A stretch of 20,000 nucleotides of DNA, taken from an uncultured virus (IMG/VR IMGVR_UViG_3300042505_000808). Taxonomy: Duplodnaviria > Heunggongvirae > Uroviricota > Caudoviricetes. The stretch lies in the IMG/VR virus record IMGVR_UViG_3300042505_000808; one strand, written 5' to 3'. Below the pieces are notes generated by a model. It had not been told where the DNA came from, ran no database searches, and was given only the letters and a program-made list of their open reading frames with translations. The translations under genes and the position numbers were made by a program. This document shows, piece by piece, positions 1 to 16,493 of this stretch (the first letter of the stretch is position 1; each line of letters begins with the position of its first letter).

Positions 1-633
1 TTTGTTAAAAAATCCGGCATCTTGTGTGGCAAACTTAGTTGCCATAATACCTTTACGTGCCCCATAGGTTCCGGCCCAATACTCGGCAGGGGACAACCCT
101 TCGCTGTAGCTACGCAGTACAGGGATTGGAATCACATCATCCCGCTGATCCGAATACAGCATGTCTGAACCTAACAAACTAGTTAAATTCATAGACTTAC
201 CGCGCGTACCTGACATTACCTGCATCCCAAGCGGATTCTTATTTAGCAATGCCTCTGCAAGTACTTGTTTTTGTTGTTCTGGACTTTCTTTACCAACGGC
301 ACGAATAATCTGCTCATTTCGCTGCTGATCTGTCAAAGATTCGTCAGATAGAATGTTGGTAAGTGTTGCTCTAACTTTCTGGCGAGAAGCTAATGCCGCT
401 TTGCTTACTTGCAAATGGCGAAGACCAAAAGACATGCCACCCTGCTCTTGAGCCATGCTTTGGCCAAGACCACTTAGCTTAAAAGAAATGTCTTTATAAC
501 GCTCTGGGTGTTGTTGTGCCACTTGCTGTAATAAAGATTGCAGCCCTTTTTTATCTAGCACACGATGAGAGTCTCTCAACTCTTCCGGAAGGACATCATT
601 AATTAACAGTTGTCCAACGGTCGTATTCAACAT
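1..633 (-). CDS. rpoC: RNA polymerase beta' subunit, C-terminal part (split rpoC); truncated by the window edge
   Basis: Not in the ORF track. Manual translation from ATG at 633 is open to position 1: MLNTTVGQLLINDVLPEELRDSHRVLDKKGLQSLL...NPLGMQVMSGTRGK...IPIPVLRSYSEGLSPAEYWAGTYGARKGIMATKFATQDAGFFNK. This matches bacterial beta' motifs TTVGR, SGARG, F.EGL and the bridge helix [25 protein letters not shown]. Confidence 0.93.
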   Translation of the reverse strand, partial: MLNTTVGQLLINDVLPEELRDSHRVLDKKGLQSLLQQVAQQHPERYKDISFKLSGLGQSMAQEQGGMSFGLRHLQVSKAALASRQKVRATLTNILSDESLTDQQRNEQIIRAVGKESPEQQKQVLAEALLNKNPLGMQVMSGTRGKSMNLTSLLGSDMLYSDQRDDVIPIPVLRSYSEGLSPAEYWAGTYGARKGIMATKFATQDAGFFNK

Positions 634-2283: not shown

Positions 2284-5200
2284 CTAACCATTTAAAATTC
2301 GTACGGGATCGTTGATCGAAATATCTCCACGTGCATGCGCTCGTCTTACATCCTGTATATTCTGGAAAATCCTTAATGGTCGATCAGATTTACGAGAAGG
2401 ATCTGTACCCATAAATAAACCACCAATGTACTCATTAGCAGGGGCATGCATTACAGACTTCATATCACCCACACTAAAAAGATTACGACTTGGCAATAAG
2501 CGGTCAAATGCTTCTTGCCTAGCTTTTTCCGTACTTGGCACATGATAGTTCATGGTGTCGCCATCAAAGTCAGCACCAAATCCCTTCACGATCAAAGGAC
2601 TTACTTGTAGGGTATTCCCTTTAGTCAATCTTGGCCTCATCGCCATAATCCCAAACTTATGCAAAACAGGAGCACGACTAATATATACAGGACGATGCTC
2701 CATCTCTTCAAGCAAGAATTTGCGTGCTACCGGAGTCTTATCTTCTAATTGAGTACGAGCCTGCAGCATCGACATGCCTTGTCGCACCAATCTTCTAGTA
2801 ACAAATTTCTCATAGACCTTAAATGCTTTATCTTCGGGCAGCCCTACCGAGTCCATGTCCAATTCCGGATTTGGAGTAATTACCGCTCGACCTACATTGT
2901 CTACCGTAGACGAAATCAGTTTGCGTTGTACAACCCCGAACTTAGGGCTTGCACCAAACACATTTTTTAAAGCCCCACGAACATTCTTCTCTTGGCTTTT
3001 TGCACTAATAGGATCACCTAACCCAGTCACCGCTTTAAATGCTTGATAGGTAGAAAGACGCTCCGATCCCGAAGCTTCTTCCCCTACTTCTTGCTGCATT
3101 TTGCTAAAATTCTGATTAGCCTCAAACAGTTCTTTATAAAGGTGATTAGCGTCGTTAACCAATGGCATGCCATTGCTCATCAAGCTAACTGGACGAAACA
3201 TTGGAGGAAGAACTGGCACTTTGGTCAGCATGTAGTCCGCAGGCTTCAGCCCTAGTTTATGTGCAGATTTAAAATAGCTAAGCTTACGAATTGCGGCATC
3301 TCGTTGCGCCCCTCGCCCTGCGGCTATCATAGCTCGAGCTTTAGGGATTTCTGCTTCTGGATTAAGATTCTCTAATGCCTTTTGTAAAGCTTTCGTACCG
3401 GTGCCATATTTCTCTAAAAATTCTGTACCTGCCACAATGCCTTCAAACTTTTTCTGTGTTAGCCCAAGCATATGACGAATAGGTTCTTCCATTACTGGGT
3501 TAGGTAAAGGTTCGTGCAAACGCATAAACGACCAACGAGTGCCCCCGTGTCCACCAGTTTTAGCCTTGTCAAATAAGCCACCATTAATCTCTTTAAGCTG
3601 ATTTCCCCATTCTACTCCGTCTGCGCTGCTAAGCTCACGATCCCCAGCTAAGTTGTCAATGTCCTTGTCCGTCAATGCCATGATTTGAGTCTGCGTTCCT
3701 TGCTTAACCACATTAACTCCAGCAGATTGCAGCTGGGCTACAAACTTCTGATAAGCAAAAGGAACTTTAGTAACCTTAGGGTTATACCCAGACATGTACT
3801 GCATCCAATAATCATCATTCTTCTGCCTACGAATTGTAAAAATGTCCTGCAGTGTGTCCGTAGCTCCGTGAGAAAGTAATGCGTTGGCATCCATTAGCCC
3901 AATACGCTTAGAACCTTCAACACCACCTTTAGCCGGTGCATCTTCCATCGTGTAAGCTCCACCACTTCTACCTTGTCCTTTAGACTCAGAGGTGTGATGC
4001 AGTTTCATGAAGAAACGATTACCCGTTGCCACATTTTTAATTTTTTGATCTTTAGATGGGTCTATAATGTCTTCTAAGTCCGACAAACCTTCCTTAGCTA
4101 ATTCTTGCATAACCCATTGAGTCATATCTTTTTTAGTGTCAAAATCATCCACCTTAATAGGCATGCCACGCTTAGCTGCTATTTTACCTAGAAACAATTC
4201 AGACATTTGAGCTGGGTTGGTTCGGCTAATAATCCCAAGAGGATTAAGAAGCACTTCAAAAGGTTGTTTATTTGAATCATGGGGCATTTCGCTATCTGGG
4301 ATGATGTCAGCAATAACACCTTTATCCCCATAACGACCCGACAGCTTATCTCCAACCTGCGTTGGCGATTCTGCCTTAACTACAACGACTGGACCTTTCT
4401 TACCCATTACCACATCAGTAACAACACCACTATCGTGATGCTGCCAAAGTACTGCTGCGTCGTTGAATCCAGATTGACCCTTCTTATGCACTTTGTTGTA
4501 TACATTTTCCTTTTGTGTGATCCCCAATACCAAAGGATCTCCAAAGTTAACTACTGTACCAGGCTTGACCACTCCTTGATCGTCTATGTTCGCTAATATG
4601 TCTTTTTTAAAGGTAGCTGGAAATGCTTGAATAAATTGTCTTTTACCGACTTGTGTTTTGTCATCCACTTCCAACTCATGCTGGTACATATGGGAAGAAG
4701 CTGTCTTCTTTGCAAAGCTTTCTGAGATAACAACCGCATCTTCAAAGTTTTTACCCTGCCATGGGATATAGGCAGTGCGAGCATTTCGGCCTAAAGCCAT
4801 TGTTCCAGTACTGTCCGTGAAGTTAGAGCTAGCTAATAACTGATTTGGTCTAAATGTGTCACCGGGTTTAACTGCGGCAGTTTGATGAAAAAAGGTTTTA
4901 CGATTGAAAGGAAAATTATGATAAAGTTCGTGCGTTTCTTCTGTTCCGTCTGCATTACGCACTTTAATCTCTTCATCCGTCACCGAGGTAACTGTACCTC
5001 CTTGTGTTGCCCTTAAAGCTCCCATCCCAGATGAGTATAGCTCTTCATAACTTTGTTTACCGCCTGTGTGCGGAACTGCAGACTGTACCAAAGGAGCTTC
5101 AGGAGAAGCTAAAGGTAATGCTTGTGTGGTCATACGAGATGCCATCACTAATCGCTGACCTTTTACCTGACTCTTCATGGGGATGACATTAGAAAGAGGA

Positions 5201-6750
5201 TTAAATGCTTCTTCCATGTCAGGAAGCTCTAAATCAATGCTTGATTTAGGTACATGTAACATCTTACCGCCACGCATCGCCACTACACGGGCATCTTCAC
5301 CATCTTGGCTTCCGGGAAAACCAACGGTTAAGTCTGCTACATCTTGAGGAGTTTTAAAAGTCATTTCCCCGCTACGCAGATCCTTAAACTGAGCATAGAG
5401 CTTACCATCGCTTCCTTTACGAGATCCCCTAGCTAGATATGTGTCCACCCCTACACGACCCGACTCGGGAGTACGCACAGGATCCACATAACCCAACATG
5501 CTTGACTGTACATTTCTGGATTCCATGGGAATTGCATCCATAGAACCAATACCACCCTCACCCACTCGAGTAACAGACATTGTCTTTTCATAAATGTCTG
5601 TAGGATTAATTTCTTCAATCGCTTGCCCTAGCCCGCTACCGAGCAAAGCACTTTTTAACTGTTTTTCTAATGCTGAAGACGGCATCGAATCCAAATTACC
5701 TTTGCCTGACATCTTCCACAGTAGGTTACGGCGAACCCCGCCTTTATCTCGTGCAATACGCTCTGAAAACAAATCTTCTGGACCTACAAACTGCTGAAAA
5801 TGCAGTGCATCTCTATCATCCGGATCCGCTTCCTTTCTATTAACCTTTATCAGCTTTTTGGTAATGTCCATCAATGTGTCTAGTGTGACACCTGAATGTG
5901 GGTTTCCCAGCGTGCGACGATTTACCTCGGGATCCATTTCCATCTTAGAAAACTTAGCAAGCAATGCTTGTTTTTGTTTTTCTTCTGGTTCAGCTAGTTC
6001 TTTAGAAGAAAGAAACATGCCTTTAAGTCTTGTATACTCAGATGCATCATCCGAATTGTAATTAGAAGCGAATAGATCTTTACCCCAAGCTTCCTGCGCC
6101 TGCTCCGAGGTAACTCCCATAGCTTTTAACAAAGGAGTTAATCCAACTGAAGCTTGCCCAACCTTAAGCTTAAATTTGCCTTTCTCAGGGTCTAAGAAAT
6201 AACGCTGTGATACGCCTTTTCCAGGCATCACATTAACATGGGATTCAATTTCACCATTGTTCCGTGTGCGGGTGTAAACTCCGGGCAGTAACCGCTGTTG
6301 ATTTCTTAAAATGTACTCAGTGCCATTGTTAATAAAGGTACCACGCTCCGTTAAGTGTGGGACAGTGGCAAGAACTGATTTCTTGGAGGCTATCACTTGC
6401 TGTGTTGCATTATCCATTAACTCCCAAGTTCCTTCTAACCTACGACCTTGAGACCTACCATTAAGAATAGCAGCTTTCTGCTCCTGCTTGCTGGCGGTAT
6501 CCCCATCACGATAGTTTACTCCAGTTAAACTAAGCGTATGTCGGTCATTAGATATAGGTTGTACTTGCTGTGCTGCTTGCAACACTCTGTCATAAATAAT
6601 AGATTTGACTTTTTTGGTGTCGTGAAATTCATGAAAACTAGGCAATGGAGCTGCAGGCTGCATTGTTTGTAGAAGCTGTGCCTGTTGTGGCACCCCGCCT
6701 AGCAACGAGATGTTAGCAGTATCAAACAAATTAGACGAAAGTGGAAGCAT
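2284..6750 (-). CDS. rpoB: multisubunit RNA polymerase: beta fused to the N-terminal half of beta' (phage type)
   Basis: Beta motifs in order: GTFINNGTEY, TPESGRVG, RLVMASRMTTQALPL, ALGRNARTAYIPWQGKNFED, GDKLSGRYGDKG, LLNPLGIISRTN, FMKLHH. Then beta' motifs with no stop: GGLFD, VPVLPPMFRP, VDNVGRAVI, SRAPVLHKFG and the catalytic GADFDGD (2557-2577). Confidence 0.96.
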   Translation of the reverse strand: MLPLSSNLFDTANISLLGGVPQQAQLLQTMQPAAPLPSFHEFHDTKKVKSIIYDRVLQAAQQVQPISNDRHTLSLTGVNYRDGDTASKQEQKAAILNGRSQGRRLEGTWELMDNATQQVIASKKSVLATVPHLTERGTFINNGTEYILRNQQRLLPGVYTRTRNNGEIESHVNVMPGKGVSQRYFLDPEKGKFKLKVGQASVGLTPLLKAMGVTSEQAQEAWGKDLFASNYNSDDASEYTRLKGMFLSSKELAEPEEKQKQALLAKFSKMEMDPEVNRRTLGNPHSGVTLDTLMDITKKLIKVNRKEADPDDRDALHFQQFVGPEDLFSERIARDKGGVRRNLLWKMSGKGNLDSMPSSALEKQLKSALLGSGLGQAIEEINPTDIYEKTMSVTRVGEGGIGSMDAIPMESRNVQSSMLGYVDPVRTPESGRVGVDTYLARGSRKGSDGKLYAQFKDLRSGEMTFKTPQDVADLTVGFPGSQDGEDARVVAMRGGKMLHVPKSSIDLELPDMEEAFNPLSNVIPMKSQVKGQRLVMASRMTTQALPLASPEAPLVQSAVPHTGGKQSYEELYSSGMGALRATQGGTVTSVTDEEIKVRNADGTEETHELYHNFPFNRKTFFHQTAAVKPGDTFRPNQLLASSNFTDSTGTMALGRNARTAYIPWQGKNFEDAVVISESFAKKTASSHMYQHELEVDDKTQVGKRQFIQAFPATFKKDILANIDDQGVVKPGTVVNFGDPLVLGITQKENVYNKVHKKGQSGFNDAAVLWQHHDSGVVTDVVMGKKGPVVVVKAESPTQVGDKLSGRYGDKGVIADIIPDSEMPHDSNKQPFEVLLNPLGIISRTNPAQMSELFLGKIAAKRGMPIKVDDFDTKKDMTQWVMQELAKEGLSDLEDIIDPSKDQKIKNVATGNRFFMKLHHTSESKGQGRSGGAYTMEDAPAKGGVEGSKRIGLMDANALLSHGATDTLQDIFTIRRQKNDDYWMQYMSGYNPKVTKVPFAYQKFVAQLQSAGVNVVKQGTQTQIMALTDKDIDNLAGDRELSSADGVEWGNQLKEINGGLFDKAKTGGHGGTRWSFMRLHEPLPNPVMEEPIRHMLGLTQKKFEGIVAGTEFLEKYGTGTKALQKALENLNPEAEIPKARAMIAAGRGAQRDAAIRKLSYFKSAHKLGLKPADYMLTKVPVLPPMFRPVSLMSNGMPLVNDANHLYKELFEANQNFSKMQQEVGEEASGSERLSTYQAFKAVTGLGDPISAKSQEKNVRGALKNVFGASPKFGVVQRKLISSTVDNVGRAVITPNPELDMDSVGLPEDKAFKVYEKFVTRRLVRQGMSMLQARTQLEDKTPVARKFLLEEMEHRPVYISRAPVLHKFGIMAMRPRLTKGNTLQVSPLIVKGFGADFDGDTMNYHVPSTEKARQEAFDRLLPSRNLFSVGDMKSVMHAPANEYIGGLFMGTDPSRKSDRPLRIFQNIQDVRRAHARGDISINDPVRILNG

Positions 6751-10427: not shown

Positions 10428-12707
10428 TTACAAAGCACAAGCACCGCCTGCGCACGCAGTCTGCTGATGCAAATCTGTCATGTCGGATCGTTCATAGCGA
10501 ACTAGTTTAGCCCAGTTGATCTTGGGCATAGCTGCAACTCTACGGTCGAACTCTTCTTGAGAAATCGCTTCATAAGGGGCTAAATGATACATACCCCCAT
10601 CAAAGGGCAAGAAACTTAAGCCTCCCACAATATCCCAGTTGTCATAGACCCATTTGCCCACTTCCAACCATTCAGTAGGTCGAATGTAAATAGTGACGCT
10701 AGGATTATGCTCAGTCCAATGCACCTTGAAGGTTTTCCATTTTTCCAACTGGCTAAGAGCTGTTTGAGTTTCTAACAGCACTCCACCTTTAGGAGCCTTC
10801 ATAGGAAACTCTAATACCAAGCCACTACCATCGTAATCGGTTAAGCAAGGTACACCTTCATCTTTCAACATCTGTGCTACTGGATTAGTAGAGTTTGCCC
10901 TAACTCGCCTAACATACCATTCCCCGTGATGTCCTTTGAAACCTGCAGGCGTGTTGAAAAACACACTGCTATCCCCCGAAGGCTTAATACAAGTTGTGGC
11001 TGCAGAGACATTGATACCAAATCGTGCTGCCCATTTAGCATTAACTTCGTTGACTAAACTTAATAACTTAGCTAAAGTTCCACCAGCTTTTGCGTTGTCT
11101 TGGAATAGCGGGTGATCAAGAAAACCAAGCAAATCTACACCCAGTAACCTCTCTTCTTCACTATTCTTTTTCCATTCTTCTCCAATGTACTTAAAGCGAG
11201 TCATCGTAGATTGAAGCGTGCCCCAAATTGTAGCTAACTCCACTTTACGAGCAATCTCTTCATAAGTGTCCGTGACACGAATAACCGCAATGGATAGGTT
11301 GCAGAACTGCTTGTGTCTCAGAATAATTTCACCGCAAGGATTCGTCCCAAAGAGGTGGCCATGGTGTTTGCGCCGTTTGGGAAACTGACTTTTCAACCCG
11401 CCTCGATTGAAGATACCACGCTCACCCGAGTTTGACTTGGCCATCGATAACCATTCTTCCATCCAAATCAATTGATCAGGTTTTTCGTTATAGACTGCAG
11501 AGTTGTTAGCCTGATTGCGTTGCTCATTGGTAGTCCAGAAATCTTGTTGCTTGCAATCTCGCATTTCACGATCATGCAGATCTGATAAAGATATACCGCT
11601 AGCCCTACGCACCCCACCCATACGCACAATTCGATGAGCAAAACAATTAATGTCATGAAGATCCAAGCTAGACAGATACCGTCCTTGTCTTGCTAAGATT
11701 CGAGCTTTAGAAAACTCTAACAAGTCTTTTAATGGACCTGGGCCAGAAGCTCTTCCACCTTTGATTTTAAGTGGAGCACCTGATTCTCGGATATGACTGT
11801 AATCAAAGTGGATATCTTCACCTGCCCACCATGCGTCTAACCCTGCCTTATACGCATCACACCAACCTTCTGTGCTGTCTTCGATTACATAAGTAATAGG
11901 TTCACTATGCTTCTTTTGTCGTTTAACTCGAGGAAACTCTTCTACGCTAAACTCTTTTTCTACTGAAAATCCAACACCCGTGCCCTGCATGAGTACATAG
12001 AGTTCCTCTGCCAAATCTGTAGTATTTTGCAGCATTTGAAAAGAACAGTTGTATACTCCGACATGACATCGTTCTAAAGCAGGTCCAGCCATCTGCACGC
12101 AACGCATGGAAGGAGCAGACTCTAACCGCAAAAGACTTTGCTTAAGCTTCCCCCATTCTTCTTCAGTTACATTGTGGTTTTCACGCTTGCAATGTGTTTG
12201 AAAAAATCCGATAACCCGATCCACTGTTTCAGGCCAAGTCTCTCTGCGCCCTAGCTCGGGAACAAAACGAGCAAACTTGTCTAAAGCTTGGAACTTCTGC
12301 AGCTCGTTATCAAAATAAGTGTCGTTTTCTTGAAATGCAGCAACTACCGCTTCGGGCAATGGTGCGTTTTCTCGTTGCTGTCTTTTGACTTCTCGAAAGA
12401 GAATATACTGCTTGGCCACGAGGTATAACCCATTAGCCATCAATTGGGTTTCCACTAGATTCTGAATCTCTTCCACATCTACTACTTTGTTGCTGCTGCA
12501 CACAATGTTGTATACTTGCTCCCCAACTAGTTTGCTGATGCGAGCTGCCTCGCCTTCATCGTATTTTAGCTCACTTACTAAGCAACGATGTAAGGCAGTG
12601 TAGATGCGAGCTTGATCAAAGTTCACCACTTTCCCGCTTCGCTTCTTAACCGTTAAATCCACATGACTACGAGCTGAAGCATCTTTTTTAAAAGAAGTAA
12701 TTTGCAC
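10428..12707 (-). CDS. nrdJ: class II (adenosylcobalamin-dependent) ribonucleotide reductase with N-terminal ATP cone
   Basis: ATP cone VKKRSGKVVNFDQARI; YNCSF; GGVRRAS; GTNPCGEI (thiyl Cys); CNLS; TCIKPSG; C-terminal CAGGAC as in monomeric RTPR enzymes; no class I tyrosine pair seen and no small subunit adjacent. GTG start with AGGAG. Confidence 0.92.
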   Translation of the reverse strand: MQITSFKKDASARSHVDLTVKKRSGKVVNFDQARIYTALHRCLVSELKYDEGEAARISKLVGEQVYNIVCSSNKVVDVEEIQNLVETQLMANGLYLVAKQYILFREVKRQQRENAPLPEAVVAAFQENDTYFDNELQKFQALDKFARFVPELGRRETWPETVDRVIGFFQTHCKRENHNVTEEEWGKLKQSLLRLESAPSMRCVQMAGPALERCHVGVYNCSFQMLQNTTDLAEELYVLMQGTGVGFSVEKEFSVEEFPRVKRQKKHSEPITYVIEDSTEGWCDAYKAGLDAWWAGEDIHFDYSHIRESGAPLKIKGGRASGPGPLKDLLEFSKARILARQGRYLSSLDLHDINCFAHRIVRMGGVRRASGISLSDLHDREMRDCKQQDFWTTNEQRNQANNSAVYNEKPDQLIWMEEWLSMAKSNSGERGIFNRGGLKSQFPKRRKHHGHLFGTNPCGEIILRHKQFCNLSIAVIRVTDTYEEIARKVELATIWGTLQSTMTRFKYIGEEWKKNSEEERLLGVDLLGFLDHPLFQDNAKAGGTLAKLLSLVNEVNAKWAARFGINVSAATTCIKPSGDSSVFFNTPAGFKGHHGEWYVRRVRANSTNPVAQMLKDEGVPCLTDYDGSGLVLEFPMKAPKGGVLLETQTALSQLEKWKTFKVHWTEHNPSVTIYIRPTEWLEVGKWVYDNWDIVGGLSFLPFDGGMYHLAPYEAISQEEFDRRVAAMPKINWAKLVRYERSDMTDLHQQTACAGGACAL

Positions 12708-12827: not shown

Positions 12828-13274
12828 TTATTGTTCGTGATCGTTGTTTTTTTCTACATAATCAGAAAAGTCAGTAGAAGGTACATCTTTGCCATTCCAC
12901 ATCATGCGAGAACGAGGCCCAAGCTCTCGAGAAACTTGTGCATAATCCGCTACAATTTCTTGATCTTTGCTAATTTCTCGCTTTGCTACTAAATCAATTT
13001 GATCCTTATCTTTCTTTATGTCAACATTTGCTTTCCATTGATGGTTACAGTAACGAGCTAATTCTGTTAAATTCCAGATTTTAGACCCAAACTCATCTTC
13101 TCCGCCAGCAGTCCCAGCACTACCAATGCTCTCTCCTTCTTTGTAATCTTTATCCGCAAATATACCTTTCCCTTTTATATGGGATTCCCCTATATACCAG
13201 CCATTATGGCTAGAGGCCATTTTGTCAGTAAATCGGATAGGTACTGCTCGTAATCGCTGAAGAAACGCTTCCAT
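12828..13274 (-). CDS. SET-domain protein (putative lysine methyltransferase)
   Basis: SET motifs: SHIKGKGIFA (GxG), ARYCNHQ (RxxNH), LVAKREI..DQEIVADY (ELxxDY). AAGGAG upstream. Confidence 0.88.
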   Translation of the reverse strand: MEAFLQRLRAVPIRFTDKMASSHNGWYIGESHIKGKGIFADKDYKEGESIGSAGTAGGEDEFGSKIWNLTELARYCNHQWKANVDIKKDKDQIDLVAKREISKDQEIVADYAQVSRELGPRSRMMWNGKDVPSTDFSDYVEKNNDHEQ

Positions 13275-13286
13275 GATAACTCCTTA

Positions 13287-13315
13287 TTGACTTGCTTGCA
13301 TAAAATAAGTATGGT
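13287..13315 (+). promoter_or_regulatory. sigma70-like promoter of csrA
   Basis: TTGACT (13287-13292), 17-nt spacer, TATGGT (13310-13315), in the divergent gap upstream of csrA. Confidence 0.65.
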
Positions 13316-13358
13316 GATCGAATTCCAAGCATTTTAACTTCAAGGAAGGACGATTCAA

Positions 13359-13571
13359 ATGCTAGTATTAAGTCGAAGAAAAGGCGAGAGCATTAAGATC
13401 AGTGATAACATCACTATCACCATAGTGGACATTCGTGGGGATAAAATTCAAATAGGAATAGAAGCTCCTCGTGAAGTTGCCGTACACCGTAGCGAAATAG
13501 CGAAGTTAATTGAAAATAAACTCAAGGCAGAGTCCAACTTGGAAGCTCCTGAGAATCCTTCTGCTTCGTAG
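13359..13571 (+). CDS. csrA: carbon storage regulator CsrA/RsmA family RNA-binding protein
   Basis: MLVLSRRKGESIKISDNITITIVDIRGDKIQIGIEAPREVAVHRSEI is a canonical CsrA sequence with the VHRxE RNA-binding motif. AAGGAAGGA upstream. Confidence 0.96.
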   Translation: MLVLSRRKGESIKISDNITITIVDIRGDKIQIGIEAPREVAVHRSEIAKLIENKLKAESNLEAPENPSAS

Positions 13572-14106
13572 ATTTACTCGTAGCATTGGCAGTGAGTACC
13601 CCAGTTTTACGCACTGCCACTATTATGGAAAAATCAGAATCACCTTCAACTTTGGTAGGTAACCCGTAGCTACGGCGTAACTTACCTAGTTCTGGCGATT
13701 TGATTCGCATGTGCCAGCAAGTAGAAACACCGGGCCAACCTTTGGCAGATGTTTCTTCAAGCCCATCAAGGTAATAGCTAAAAGCTTTACCTCGCTCGCT
13801 TATCTTCTCAGTACCACCTATTTGCTTTAATTCTTCGGGGGTCATAACCACGATACCTGCACGCAAAGCCCCGCCATCTACAGAAGTGGGTAAAGAAATA
13901 CCAGGTTCGTGCATTGCGTCGAAAATACCACGGACTAATGCAGTAGGTATGCCAACTATCAAGTAACTAGGAGCTGCACATTTTGAATTAGTGATTTGAA
14001 GCAAACCCGTCATTTTAACTTCCGCCCATTTCTCGGGCATTTGCAAAACATCATAGAGCAATAAATGCCGATAATCTGGAATATCAGCTGTAGAGATCAG
14101 ACTCAT
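13522..14106 (-). CDS. probable 2H-phosphoesterase-fold protein lacking both catalytic histidines
   Basis: The scaffold ...AGIVVMTPEE...W.MRIKSPELGKLRRSYGL...DFSIIVAVRK resembles, from memory, phage 2H proteins with AHISV and FHITxA motifs; both HxS/T positions are altered. Confidence 0.55.
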   Translation of the reverse strand: MSLISTADIPDYRHLLLYDVLQMPEKWAEVKMTGLLQITNSKCAAPSYLIVGIPTALVRGIFDAMHEPGISLPTSVDGGALRAGIVVMTPEELKQIGGTEKISERGKAFSYYLDGLEETSAKGWPGVSTCWHMRIKSPELGKLRRSYGLPTKVEGDSDFSIIVAVRKTGVLTANATSKSTKQKDSQELPSWTLP

Positions 14107-14121
14107 AAAAACTCCCTTAAC

Positions 14122-14463
14122 CTATTTCATAATTGCGGCATAAACTGAAAATGAAGAAAGCAACACAGTAAGAATCATGCCAGACAAACCTACAACTAAC
14201 TGTGTTCTAGTGAGCATGCGAGAAGCGGTCATAGAATTGGCATATTGGCTAATTTGTTCTAAGTCTTTAATCTGACCTTCTAATACTGTCTCTACTTGAG
14301 CTAACCGCTGCATAATAGACGGCTGACCATTACCATCTCGTACCAACTTACACAGGATATGAATGTCCTGACTCATATGATCCACTTTAGCTTCAACTGA
14401 TGCCACTTGTTGTATTAATCTTTCTTGAGTTAATGCTAAGGCGTGATATTGAGTAGTTGTCAT
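14122..14463 (-). CDS. small coiled-coil protein with a C-terminal transmembrane helix (holin/XhlA-like architecture)
   Basis: Heptad-like N-terminal part and C-terminal LVVGLSGMILTVLLSSFSVYAAI. AAGGA upstream favours the ATG at 14463 over 14475. Confidence 0.65.
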   Translation of the reverse strand: MTTTQYHALALTQERLIQQVASVEAKVDHMSQDIHILCKLVRDGNGQPSIMQRLAQVETVLEGQIKDLEQISQYANSMTASRMLTRTQLVVGLSGMILTVLLSSFSVYAAIMK

Positions 14464-14464
14464 G

Positions 14465-14489
14465 CTTCTCGGCATCCTTGTAAGAGAAG
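14465..14489 (-). promoter_or_regulatory. candidate CsrA-binding hairpin over a ribosome-binding site
   Basis: Minus strand CTTCTC-TTACAAGGATGCC-GAGAAG-C-ATG: a 6-bp stem enclosing UUACAAGGAUGC, 10/12 identical to the CsrA SELEX consensus RUACARGGAUGU. Confidence 0.55.
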
Positions 14490-14496
14490 AGAAATA

Positions 14497-14690
14497 GCTA
14501 AGTGGCCCCTTGAGATCCCCTTCCTCAAGTCCAGTGCGGAAGCGTTCCGCTGGTAACAGTCATAAGGTGCGACTGGAACTCCACCAGCTGGCTGTTTTTC
14601 ACTTGCCCAGCAATCCTAATGCAAATTGCGGCTATCCTAGCTGCGCTGCATTTCCTAACCTATCGGCACCTGCGATAAAGCCACTTGGGC
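14497..14690 (-). ncRNA. candidate structured non-coding RNA or 5' leader, GGA-rich (CsrB/RsmZ-like)
   Basis: Closing stem 14498-14506/14680-14688 encloses six local hairpins; eight GGA on the minus strand versus two on the plus strand; begins just downstream of a TATAAT box. Confidence 0.6.
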
Positions 14691-14692
14691 TG

Positions 14693-14722
14693 ATTATACC
14701 TCTTAAGTAGAGGCAACAGCAA
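14693..14722 (-). promoter_or_regulatory. sigma70-like promoter upstream of the structured element
   Basis: Minus strand TTGCTG (14722-14717), 18-nt spacer, perfect TATAAT (14698-14693). Confidence 0.6.
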
Positions 14723-14741
14723 GAGTAGGAAATTTGTTAGG

Positions 14742-15467
14742 TTAGCTGGCATCTTTTTTATCCCATAGCCTTTTTAAAAGTTCCCACAAATCGGATTGTA
14801 AGTTCTCTTCCTTGTTCTCTACCATCCACTTTTCTACTTCCTTAGCTGTCTCCATCATTCGGTCTAAACGCAAGGCACCTATACTGCGAAGCTCTGACAC
14901 CAAGGTAAGCAGTAACACCCCAGCAGAAGCCGGCACATAGTCTTCTGTTTTACCTTTTTTAATCTTTATCTCGTCCTCATCCGCTTTGAAGGAATCTTCA
15001 ACTGGAAGGTAAGCATCGTCATCAAAGATGATTTCTTCGTCATCATCGTCGTCTTCTTCGTCGCTACCTTCAACCCCTTCCCTACCTTTGTGCCCTTCGT
15101 AATTATGGCACTCCTTGTAGTTCTCCTTGTAGTTCTCCTTATATGTATTATCTGTAGCCAGTTTGCTTTCCAACGAAGAAAAGAAATCAAGCAGATTTTC
15201 CGGTCCTATTAGCTTTACTAGTTCTTCTGCATTGTCTGTATACACATAGCAGCAGGCAATTTCAGCGTGGGTTACGGAATCAGAGTTTTGGCTTAAAGGT
15301 AATAAAGTCGTGTACACGAGGCAAGGATAGGATTCTGGGCTTTTAGGTAACTGTATCGACAACGAACTGCCATCTGCAGCCATATTCAATTCAGTTATCA
15401 TATCTTTCTGATAATGCTGCCACTCTTCTTTATTATGAAGCATAACCGCTTTTTTAAACTTACTCAT
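14742..15467 (-). CDS. hypothetical protein with a strongly acidic central tract
   Basis: AAGGA upstream of ATG; SDEEDDDDDEE tract; YKEN repeat. Confidence 0.78.
   Translation of the reverse strand: MSKFKKAVMLHNKEEWQHYQKDMITELNMAADGSSLSIQLPKSPESYPCLVYTTLLPLSQNSDSVTHAEIACCYVYTDNAEELVKLIGPENLLDFFSSLESKLATDNTYKENYKENYKECHNYEGHKGREGVEGSDEEDDDDDEEIIFDDDAYLPVEDSFKADEDEIKIKKGKTEDYVPASAGVLLLTLVSELRSIGALRLDRMMETAKEVEKWMVENKEENLQSDLWELLKRLWDKKDAS
15111..15143. repeat. 12-bp coding tandem repeat (YKEN, about 2.7 copies)
   Basis: ctccttgtagtt ctccttgtagtt ctccttata. Confidence 0.85.
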
Positions 15468-15485
15468 GTAGGTCCTTTCTTTGGT

Positions 15486-15695
15486 TTAACCTTCCGTCCA
15501 CCCCTGTTTGTAGCCCCACAATCCCACCTCTAACTTAGAGGAAAGATTTAGTTTTTTACGGATACGTTTAACATAAGTCTTAATTGTTTCATAGCCAAGA
15601 TTAAGCTTTACTGCAATGTCTTTGTACTTTAAGTTTTTACTGATTAGTATGACTATTTCCCGTTCTCGTGCCGTCAACCCTTTGTCTTGCTGCAT
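15486..15695 (-). CDS. stand-alone LuxR/GerE-type helix-turn-helix regulator
   Basis: LTAREREIVILI...YKDIAVKLNLGYETIKTYVKRIRKKLNL fits the LuxR C-terminal HTH pattern; no receiver or autoinducer domain. Confidence 0.9.
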   Translation of the reverse strand: MQQDKGLTAREREIVILISKNLKYKDIAVKLNLGYETIKTYVKRIRKKLNLSSKLEVGLWGYKQGWTEG

Positions 15696-15716
15696 GTTTT
15701 TACCTTACTATCCTAA

Positions 15717-16493
15717 TTAAAATAAAGTGGTACTATCCATGTATTCGAGCACATCATGAGGCGCCGCACTTTTCAGCTCGGTCCAATTCATCACTCGACT
15801 GCGAACATCCCTACGCTGTACTCGTTTTTGGTTGGGCAAACATGCTGGGCTAAACTTTAACTCCAAAAACTCTAACAGATTCTCTAAGACACCTCGAAAG
15901 TCTAAAAGTAACTCATGATAGGGAATAACAGCTCGGTCTGGGCAAAGCCTATTAACTTTAGACATAGCTGCAGTGTGGTCCCGCACAAATTGCGTTAGTT
16001 CTGCAGGTTCAATGCAAATTGCAGGTAAGCGGTCACTACTACTAATTTCCACATTACCCTCCCTTTGCTGCTGCTGTTTCCACGCAACATAACAAGCAAT
16101 AGGATTACGCACAACATGCACTAAACAGAAATCGCCACGGCGACAACGCTGGTCCGTATAATCCCACAAATCGTAATGGCGTAAGTGTTCGTAATTGACC
16201 TTTACCCCGACGGCCTTTTCGCCATGCAGTATGTTGTCAAAAATCTTGTTATTGAAGTATTGTTCAACGCTTAGATGGGTGGGATCAAAATGGTCAATGA
16301 TTTTACCAGTAGTCCCAAAGTACATGGAATGTTCGACTTTTCTAACCTTGTCATCATCGTGAAGCAGATCGCCATGACAAACTATGTCAGGGTGTGCAGC
16401 TAAAGAAGACTGTAATAAACCATACCCCGAATGCCGATTTCCGATCACCATAAAATTAAGAATTTCTGCGTTTTCTCGGTTGTACCAAGCCAT
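15717..16493 (-). CDS. sulfotransferase-family protein (Stf0-like), degenerate PAPS motifs
   Basis: FMVIGNRHSGYGLLQSSLAAHPDIVCHGDLL resembles RSGST.L...L..HP.I.C.GE; VHVVRNP (3'-phosphate-binding Arg); IPYHELL (YEDL-like). Confidence 0.75.
   Translation of the reverse strand: MAWYNRENAEILNFMVIGNRHSGYGLLQSSLAAHPDIVCHGDLLHDDDKVRKVEHSMYFGTTGKIIDHFDPTHLSVEQYFNNKIFDNILHGEKAVGVKVNYEHLRHYDLWDYTDQRCRRGDFCLVHVVRNPIACYVAWKQQQQREGNVEISSSDRLPAICIEPAELTQFVRDHTAAMSKVNRLCPDRAVIPYHELLLDFRGVLENLLEFLELKFSPACLPNQKRVQRRDVRSRVMNWTELKSAAPHDVLEYMDSTTLF

Follow-up and report, generated by a model that had tools for sequence, protein, structure and literature searches.

In this study we describe a structured RNA encoded by an uncultured virus of the Caudoviricetes (IMG/VR record IMGVR_UViG_3300042505_000808), together with the genes that surround it, among them a phage csrA. 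The window, as the whole analysed stretch of 20,000 nucleotides (nt) is called here, corresponds to the minus strand of bases 99445-119444 of a virus record of 178,753 bases (83% complete). A first-pass annotation of this DNA had proposed a phage-encoded Csr circuit composed of CsrA, a GGA-rich multi-hairpin RNA acting as sponge or leader, and a CsrA-gated membrane-protein gene. What is secure is that a new structured RNA, strongly supported by covariation, is widespread within one group of uncultured phages with genomes near 200 kb: the element located about 1 kb from csrA is a member of a large RNA family that is unlisted in Rfam. It stands at the head of an operon in which the RNA is followed by a small membrane protein, in some relatives by a tRNA-Asn, and by a 2H-phosphoesterase (SAK) gene.

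The element of the window was 89.3% identical to its counterpart in contig L003, against 51-82% for the flanking genes and 48-64% for the other spacers. Among the copies of the window, L002 and L003, three changes (G-C to G-U or U-A to U-G) left pairs that form on the minus strand only, and compensatory pairs were observed as well. Relatives were traced by way of the contigs L002 and L003, a search anchored on the reductase gene, and an alignment (A7) of homologues of the 2H protein. The reductase-anchored search led to L128, a more distant relative with the same gene order, whose RNA copy scored 48.7 bits with the first covariance model (R1) and displayed a TATAAT ahead of the closing helix but just four GGA. 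The 2H-phosphoesterase-like protein had 96 homologues, 43 of which were aligned in A7 and led to 80 viral loci. Many of the contigs concerned measured 190-226 kb, and a good number of the 80 loci were matched by R1 already. A second model (R2), built from 20 well-aligned copies that included none from the subgroup of the window, matched 76 of 81 stretches (E <= 0.01). Every match had the orientation of the 2H gene and preceded that gene by 0.5-1.4 kb. The 81 stretches comprised the window and L128 together with 79 loci out of the 80, since L134 lay on the same contig as L128. The window itself matched R2 with 44.8 bits (E 3.7e-13, model positions 1-221). The five stretches missed by R2 were L137, L138, L164, L166 and L207, and their whole records gave a single 17-bit match.

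Covariation was found throughout the fold. The consensus of the 20 copies, aligned with MAFFT linsi, comprised 58 pairs, and compensatory changes were seen in 37. Among 49 distinct copies, double changes occurred in 54 of the 58 pairs, and 97.3% of cells were paired; shuffles reached 77.7%, and sliding the partners lowered the figure to 38-44%. The covariation score was 0.628 (against 0.249) and was reached by none of 500 shuffles. The 49-copy alignment had been fitted to R2, which favours structure, but the independent MAFFT alignment yielded identical helices. Family members measured 185-230 nt, with a closing helix P1 enclosing six hairpin arms and conserved purine-rich joiners. The sequence GGTTAG was unchanged across 28 sequences, and GGUUAGG occurred in 45 of the 49 members, the remaining four displaying GGUUAGC, GGUUAGA (two) and GGUAGGA. 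Helices P4 and P5 also covaried inside the subgroup of the window. Two structural proposals were abandoned along the way: a five-way junction obtained with RNAalifold from three near-identical sequences was wrong for P2, P4 and P5 and was corrected by the family model, and a pairing of the P3 tip with an AUCC/UUCC joiner, judged by eye, was dropped as its changes did not covary.

The gap that contains the element (14476-14741, 266 bases) had a G+C content of 49%, against 43% in the window. The first-pass annotation had read there a TATAAT promoter followed by a multi-hairpin element of about 190 nt with eight GGA. The promoter-like box and a real structured RNA on the minus strand were borne out by our results, while the GGA count proved to be unexceptional (see below). 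The gap contains eight GGA on the minus strand; three are TAGGA, one of which sits in the loop GCUA-GGA-UAGC. Taken alone, the window's sequence folded on the minus strand no more favourably than its shuffles did (z +0.80), against a z of -2.06 on the plus strand; in spite of this weak fold energy the multi-hairpin structure is real, as the covariation demonstrates. The G-U pairs place the element on the minus strand, where a conserved -10 box precedes P1.

Searches for the family elsewhere gave a consistent picture. None of the 4227 Rfam models matched the element in the window (E up to 10) or seven divergent relatives (E up to 1), tRNAs being the only hits. Neither the major-type RNA (blastn) nor the 2H domain (tblastn) had a match among GenBank phages in the collections searched, and the two nearest cultured phages contained neither CsrA nor the RNA. 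A scan with 18-mers returned six loci, all due to chance; a pattern scan of metagenomes returned ten, of which six were real and all close relatives; and a gapped pattern in viral contigs recovered only contigs that were already known. The closest bacterial CsrA sequences came mostly from metagenome-assembled genomes of Planctomycetota (46-70% identity), which is a lead to the host and no more. Five planctomycete genomes contained no real R1 match (one of 15.7 bits, E 0.75, was taken as chance). An origin of the RNA in the host was also rejected after 151 further genomes gave no real R1 match, the lone one (G153) being located inside a coding region of 70% G+C.

A promoter-like box at a constant position is a further hallmark of the family. 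By script count, a TAnnnT box (often TGnTAAAAT or TATAAT) was present 3-7 nt before P1 in 34 of the 49 copies, and four more displayed it at 6 nt when read by eye, masked by a nearer chance match. Eight others had it 20-26 nt upstream and three had none. In these eight (L175, L155, L162, L167, L156, L191, L200 and L174), the -10-like box TGATAAATT is followed by a small GC-rich hairpin, and their RNAs may have an additional 5' stem. The -35 sequence of the window, TTGCTG, has only three of six matches, hence the absence of the TATAAT promoter from the promoter scan listing. In L002, an additional gene for a 211-aa protein (L002:3140-3775) separates the RNA from a 236-aa gene, and the stop codon of this additional gene falls within the TATAAT box of the RNA.

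Downstream, the next open reading frame (ORF) begins 9-60 nt past the RNA, and a scan between 14500 and 14463 revealed no terminator. The first-pass annotation was right in placing the element directly ahead of a coiled-coil membrane-protein gene. The start of this gene was set at 14463, the second ATG, since a single base separating the two ATGs is deleted in L002. In the subgroup of the window, the first downstream ORF codes for a coiled-coil protein of 113-170 amino acids (aa) with a C-terminal membrane helix, and in the major subgroup for a multi-helix membrane protein (about 118-126 aa), behind which comes a short membrane ORF (about 50 aa). These membrane proteins had no above-threshold family in Pfam or PHROGs; the 113-aa protein of the window resembled XhlA by language-model features alone (score 0.92, rank 15). 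The 194-aa 2H-like protein scored below the Pfam cut-off, and its predicted fold (predicted local distance difference test 74.5) gave weak 2H-type rows in Foldseek (E 0.1 or worse), while long relatives passed that cut-off at 35 bits and were fused to NUDIX. In most relatives, the protein is far longer (375-1354 aa) and 2H-SAK makes up its N-terminal portion, as in fusions with NUDIX domains (L183:3396-5702) or with a GerD-like region (L141:3354-7415). Of 51 loci scanned, 19 had a tRNA-Asn(GTT) that separates the membrane-protein genes from the 2H gene (e.g. L171:3281-3353), and L164 contained four other tRNAs in its place. The coordinates of all features are given in Table 1.

Table 1. Positions in the window of the RNA element, its helices and joiners, and the neighbouring genes and signals.
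Feature	Position	Strand	Basis
Promoter-like TTGCTG-N18-TATAAT, -10 box 14698-14693	14693-14722	-	TATAAT invariant in relatives
Structured RNA core, 187 nt, P1 5' strand to P1 3' strand	14500-14686	-	R2 match
P1, closing helix	14686-14678 with 14508-14500	-	
P2, loop CAGGUGC	14676-14673 with 14665-14662	-	
Joiner GGUUAGG, unpaired	14660-14654	-	GGUUAG invariant
Arm P3, tip GCUA-GGA-UAGC	14652-14618; tip 14631-14641, GGA 14637-14635	-	stem covaries
P4	14611-14607 with 14591-14587	-	
Joiner UGGUGGA	14586-14580	-	
P5, conserved loop UCGCACCUUAUGA	14579-14573 with 14559-14553	-	
P6	14550-14545 with 14541-14536	-	
Arm P7, CUUGAGG, loop AAGGGGA, UCUCAAG	14529-14523 with 14515-14509; GGA 14518-14516	-	stem covaries
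Start-region hairpin, CUUCUC (14489-14484), loop UUACAAGGAUGCC, GAGAAG (14470-14465)	14465-14489; GGA 14477-14475	-	sequence
Coiled-coil protein, 113 aa, C-terminal membrane helix; first gene behind the RNA	14122-14463	-	ORF
2H-phosphoesterase-like gene, 194 aa	13522-14106	-	PF22547 2H-SAK 23.8 bits, below cut-off 27
csrA, 70 aa	13359-13571	+	PF02599 profile match
csrA ribosome-binding region AAGGAAGGA, two overlapping GGA	13342-13350	+	unchanged in 3 aligned sequences
Promoter-like TTGACT-N17-TATGGT before csrA	13287-13315	+	9/12 matches
SET-domain protein	12828-13274	-	PF00856, E 1e-7
Class II ribonucleotide reductase with ATP cone	10428-12707	-	

The csrA gene announced by the first-pass annotation is real and, among 24 large ORFs scanned, the only one on the plus strand, nearly all the others of the window being on the minus strand. 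Its product matched PF02599 with E 2.6e-23 and 82.2 bits (cut-off 27) and passed two NCBIfam CsrA equivalog cut-offs (NF002469, 79.4 vs 73; TIGR00202, 75.0 vs 70.1). Residues 1-65 aligned with RsmE 2jpp, the closest solved chain (E 1.4e-15). With its small size, full-length alignment to CsrA/RsmE chains, N-terminal MLxLxR and VHR motif, the 70-aa ORF is, on these profile and motif matches, a full, canonical CsrA. The promoter that had been attributed to the gene is present, and its -35 box was unchanged across three aligned sequences, but such matches occurred in the region at the rate expected by chance (six found vs 6.1 expected from shuffles). The overlapping GGA in the ribosome-binding region could allow autoregulation, an inference from these motifs only. 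At the other end, csrA and the 2H-like gene converge and their 3' ends overlap by 50 bases (13522-13571), an arrangement also encountered in L002, L003 and L128. Two separate CsrA-family genes were recorded in the whole records G157 (L182), G163 (L135) and G168 (L139).

As to function, we tentatively prefer, with rather less than even confidence, a cis-acting leader docked by a CsrA-type dimer, not a multi-GGA sponge. The RNA would act in cis as the 5' leader of the membrane-protein/2H operon, and the docked factor would be a CsrA-type dimer, either the phage's own, encoded 1 kb away, or that of the host. Its binding sites would be the conserved GGA loops at the P3 tip and in P7, and two similar GGA loops would suit a homodimer. 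In the subgroup of the window, a third GGA would be displayed by the start-region hairpin. A dimer might bridge the P7-loop and start-region sites and keep the membrane protein from being translated until titration of CsrA or a refolding of the RNA. The sites in question are well conserved: the P3 tip displayed GGA in 47 of 49 copies (CA.GGA.G in 41), the P7 loop GGGGAU in 48 and the P4/P5 joiner an unpaired GGA in 44, three unpaired-GGA positions being kept in 44-48 of the 49 members. The start-region loop GGA sits 38 nt after that of the P7 loop, a distance within the bridging range for one CsrA dimer.

The start region itself gave mixed results. The first-pass annotation had seen a hairpin over the Shine-Dalgarno sequence of the coiled-coil gene. 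Such a hairpin is indeed present, and a GGA-loop hairpin with an equal stem recurs in the more distant L128 and L135, L002 having a different, complementary stem; its stability and its resemblance to a selected CsrA site were, for their part, at chance level. A GGA within 25 nt of the start was found in all five csrA-adjacent loci vs 12 of 44 others (Fisher 0.003), so that most of the family does not have it. The csrA-adjacent L139, which represents an independent lineage, displayed CUGA-ACAGGAAG-UCAG beside the ribosome-binding site, and L136, a complete genome without csrA, a plain GAGG site and no start-region GGA.

Several observations weigh against docking by CsrA. Regarding the start region, shuffled sequences folded just as stably as the hairpin (z about 0 for three variants), and the hairpin's 10/12 match to the consensus from systematic evolution of ligands by exponential enrichment was one of 28 such sites in the genome, where 21.4±3.9 were expected. 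The contrast of 5/5 with 12/44 is uncorrected for relatedness, four of the five csrA-adjacent loci being members of one clade, and the start-codon heuristic behind it miscalled two or three starts. As regards GGA content, windows of 266 nt contained 4.2 GGA on average (sd 2.0) and 7.6% of them reached the eight of the element; family-wide, 6.12 GGA were counted per RNA vs 4.78 in dinucleotide shuffles, and the triplets AGG, GGU and GGG had as many conserved columns as GGA. The conservation and complexity of the RNA go far beyond what CsrA sites need, GGUUAGG, GGNGG and the P5 loop being left unaccounted for. The occurrence of the two partners was also imperfectly matched: just six of 80 loci had csrA at 3.5 kb or less from the 2H gene, G156 retains the RNA with a CAAGGAU tip but is devoid of CsrA, the RNA of L182 has no tip GGA though its genome has two CsrA genes, and G166 and G167 have CsrA with the RNA not detected. 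At 19 other CsrA-bearing viral loci, no RNA was found (best R1 match 6.4 bits, E 6.4; best R2 match a 9.7-bit fragment, E 0.1).

Whole records were more favourable to an association, since CsrA (PF02599) was found in 18 of 23 and in 17 of the 19 that are at least 90% complete. Sixteen of the 23 had RNA and CsrA, three RNA only (G156, 100% complete, and two others 77-82% complete), two CsrA only (G166 and G167) and two neither. This co-occurrence is nevertheless weak evidence because both traits follow the clade. A co-occurrence of csrA and the RNA as a pair, which the first-pass annotation had named as a check, is not supported: it is the 2H gene that the RNA tracks. A wider view, which we consider possible but rather unlikely, is that this giant-phage clade carries a self-contained Csr module, its own CsrA with an elaborate docking RNA heading an operon of lysis-type membrane protein and RNA-end repair, for the timing of late functions. 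There, CsrA bound to two or three GGA loops would time these functions independently of the host Csr system or in competition with it.

Presence of the element in RNA libraries was documented by small parts of 13200-15500 that two studies had captured in three metatranscriptome runs. A contig of 156 letters in run X2, identical to 14518-14657, had a depth of 60.7, and contigs on 14107-14296 had depths of 4-7. Run X1 contained two contigs, from a relative, that covered 14574-14724 and 14698-14848. The latter crosses the -10 box, so RNA-library sequence is not confined to the element, which weighs against the reading that we prefer. Depth of contigs measures abundance poorly, neither the strand nor the ends of a transcript can be read from them, and such libraries may contain DNA; these contigs document the presence of the element sequence and hint, at most, at its abundance. 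Where 13200-15500 has no contig cover, as at csrA, the libraries are uninformative, and matches at 15015-15071 were low-complexity ones from other organisms.

A partner other than CsrA would turn the element into a riboswitch-like leader, its core sensing a small molecule, an ion or a non-CsrA protein and the GGA loops serving as tertiary contacts. We regard this as possible, if on the doubtful side. Seven covarying helices with invariant joiners (GGUUAG, GGNGG, GGGGAUC) form a pattern typical of ligand-binding RNAs, and the own -10 box, the start codon a short distance downstream, the linkage to the operon and not to csrA, the equal conservation of non-GGA G-rich triplets and the retention of the RNA in a complete genome without CsrA all point the same way. 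However, no Rfam riboswitch class matched even at E up to 10, neither a conserved terminator nor an anti-Shine-Dalgarno platform was seen, the first downstream gene varies by subgroup (coiled-coil/membrane-helix protein vs multi-helix membrane protein), and no ligand can be named.

The close tie to the 2H gene, retained in 76 of 81 stretches, would also be compatible with a stable non-coding RNA acting in trans with RNA-end-processing genes, as scaffold, decoy or substrate in RNA repair or counter-defence. The tRNA-Asn lying between the RNA and the 2H gene and the fusion of 2H-SAK with NUDIX in the long forms would fit such a role, as would, weakly, the roughly tenfold contig depth on the RNA relative to the next gene in one run. 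Yet the short spacing and the absence of a terminator between RNA and next ORF, the lack of an Rfam match to Y RNA, tmRNA or other known ribonucleoprotein RNAs, the below-cut-off 2H score of the window protein and its weak fold matches make this proposal improbable.

A sponge of the CsrB/RsmZ type, titrating CsrA from its targets by many GGA sites, was among the ideas of the first-pass annotation, and we hold it to be very unlikely. It could draw on the eight GGA of the window's copy with their three UAGGA, on the three conserved unpaired positions and on the hints of abundance in RNA libraries. These GGA counts are near background, however, both in the window and in the family, and L128 has lost five of the window's eight and keeps only four GGA. 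Known sponges have roughly one GGA site per 15-25 nt, compared with about one conserved site per 70 nt here; moreover, no Rfam Csr/Rsm model matched and no terminator follows the element. Finally, a small protein on the opposite strand (66-aa ORF, 14510-14710, +), open in the window, L002 and L003 on a strand that folds slightly better in the window, is dismissed as an explanation of the conservation with near certainty, given the absent codon periodicity ([9,7,7] vs [23,13,55] in a neighbouring real gene), six synonymous vs 13 non-synonymous codon changes, wobble changes that fit the minus strand only and family-wide covariation.

Other genes of the window place the operon in its context. No DNA-level relatives of the region were found among GenBank phages (blastn). 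A 1488-aa ORF (2284-6750, minus strand) joins RNA polymerase regions of beta type (Rpb2 domain 6) and beta' type (Rpb1 domains 1-2), and the ORF next to it (1-633, minus strand) carries on with Rpb1 domain 5; the closest cultured phages for this polymerase were Vibrio phage D181 and Salmonella phage Arash, with about 30% amino-acid identity. The SET-domain gene is a conserved neighbour of csrA within the subgroup of the window. At 15486-16493 (minus strand), a 69-aa helix-turn-helix protein of LuxR/sigma-region-4 type and a sulfotransferase-family protein are encoded upstream of a 241-aa acidic protein, a trio also present in L128. An HNH nuclease is encoded as well among the minus-strand ORFs.

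As a rule, an RNA this large and this well conserved has a specific partner, be it a ligand or a protein. Riboswitches, structured leaders and the large phage-associated Rfam RNAs GOLLD and ROOL, whose function is not known, resemble the new RNA in size, multi-helix junction and covariation, in location at the 5' end of an operon and in occurrence in phages; it differs from them in matching none of the Rfam models. Should the partner be other than CsrA, the element would be a candidate for a new class of riboswitch or ribonucleoprotein controlling a lysis-type gene and an RNA-repair module. A literature search on RNA repair by SAK yielded no paper. The Csr/Rsm sponges (CsrB, CsrC, RsmX/Y/Z) share with it GGA both in the loops of hairpins and in linkers that are unpaired, as at the P3 tip with its CA.GGA.G, but the phage RNA differs in having no Rfam match, a background GGA density, a complex core and a transition into an ORF without terminator.

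CsrA-repressed messenger RNA leaders, such as hcnA in Pseudomonas and glgC in E. coli, bear on the reading that we prefer, a leader docked by CsrA. Alike are the loop GGA at the translation start, the upstream GGA hairpin and a canonical CsrA encoded nearby. Unlike them, the phage RNA holds its upstream sites inside a seven-helix structure of 187 nt that is conserved as a whole, and the regulator is phage-encoded, every csrA-adjacent locus (all five, vs 12 of 44 others) having the start-region GGA.

Phage CsrA/RsmA homologues have been described before. The accessible text of one survey gives unpaired ANGGA in short hairpins as the CsrA target and counts 30 phage genomes with a homologue among 2517 (Sobrero and Valverde 2020, PMC7366521), and in that of another, CsrA from GenBank and IMG/VR phages is proposed as a CRISPR-Cas repressor (Campa et al. 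2021, PMC8450108). Knock-down of the CsrA of PTXU04 (gp28) is stated to result in a plaque-size defect (PMC11879866), and CsrA is annotated in single phages (PMC10269572, PMC12038007, as far as their accessible text goes). In the published text accessible to us, supplementary tables aside, no phage-borne cognate RNA for a phage CsrA was found. If CsrA is the partner, the present RNA and csrA would be the first such pair in the literature searched and would offer a concrete role for phage CsrA genes. The protein of the window is in itself one more phage CsrA; what sets this clade apart from the homologues described so far is that CsrA is close to being a core gene, present in 17 of 19 near-complete genomes.

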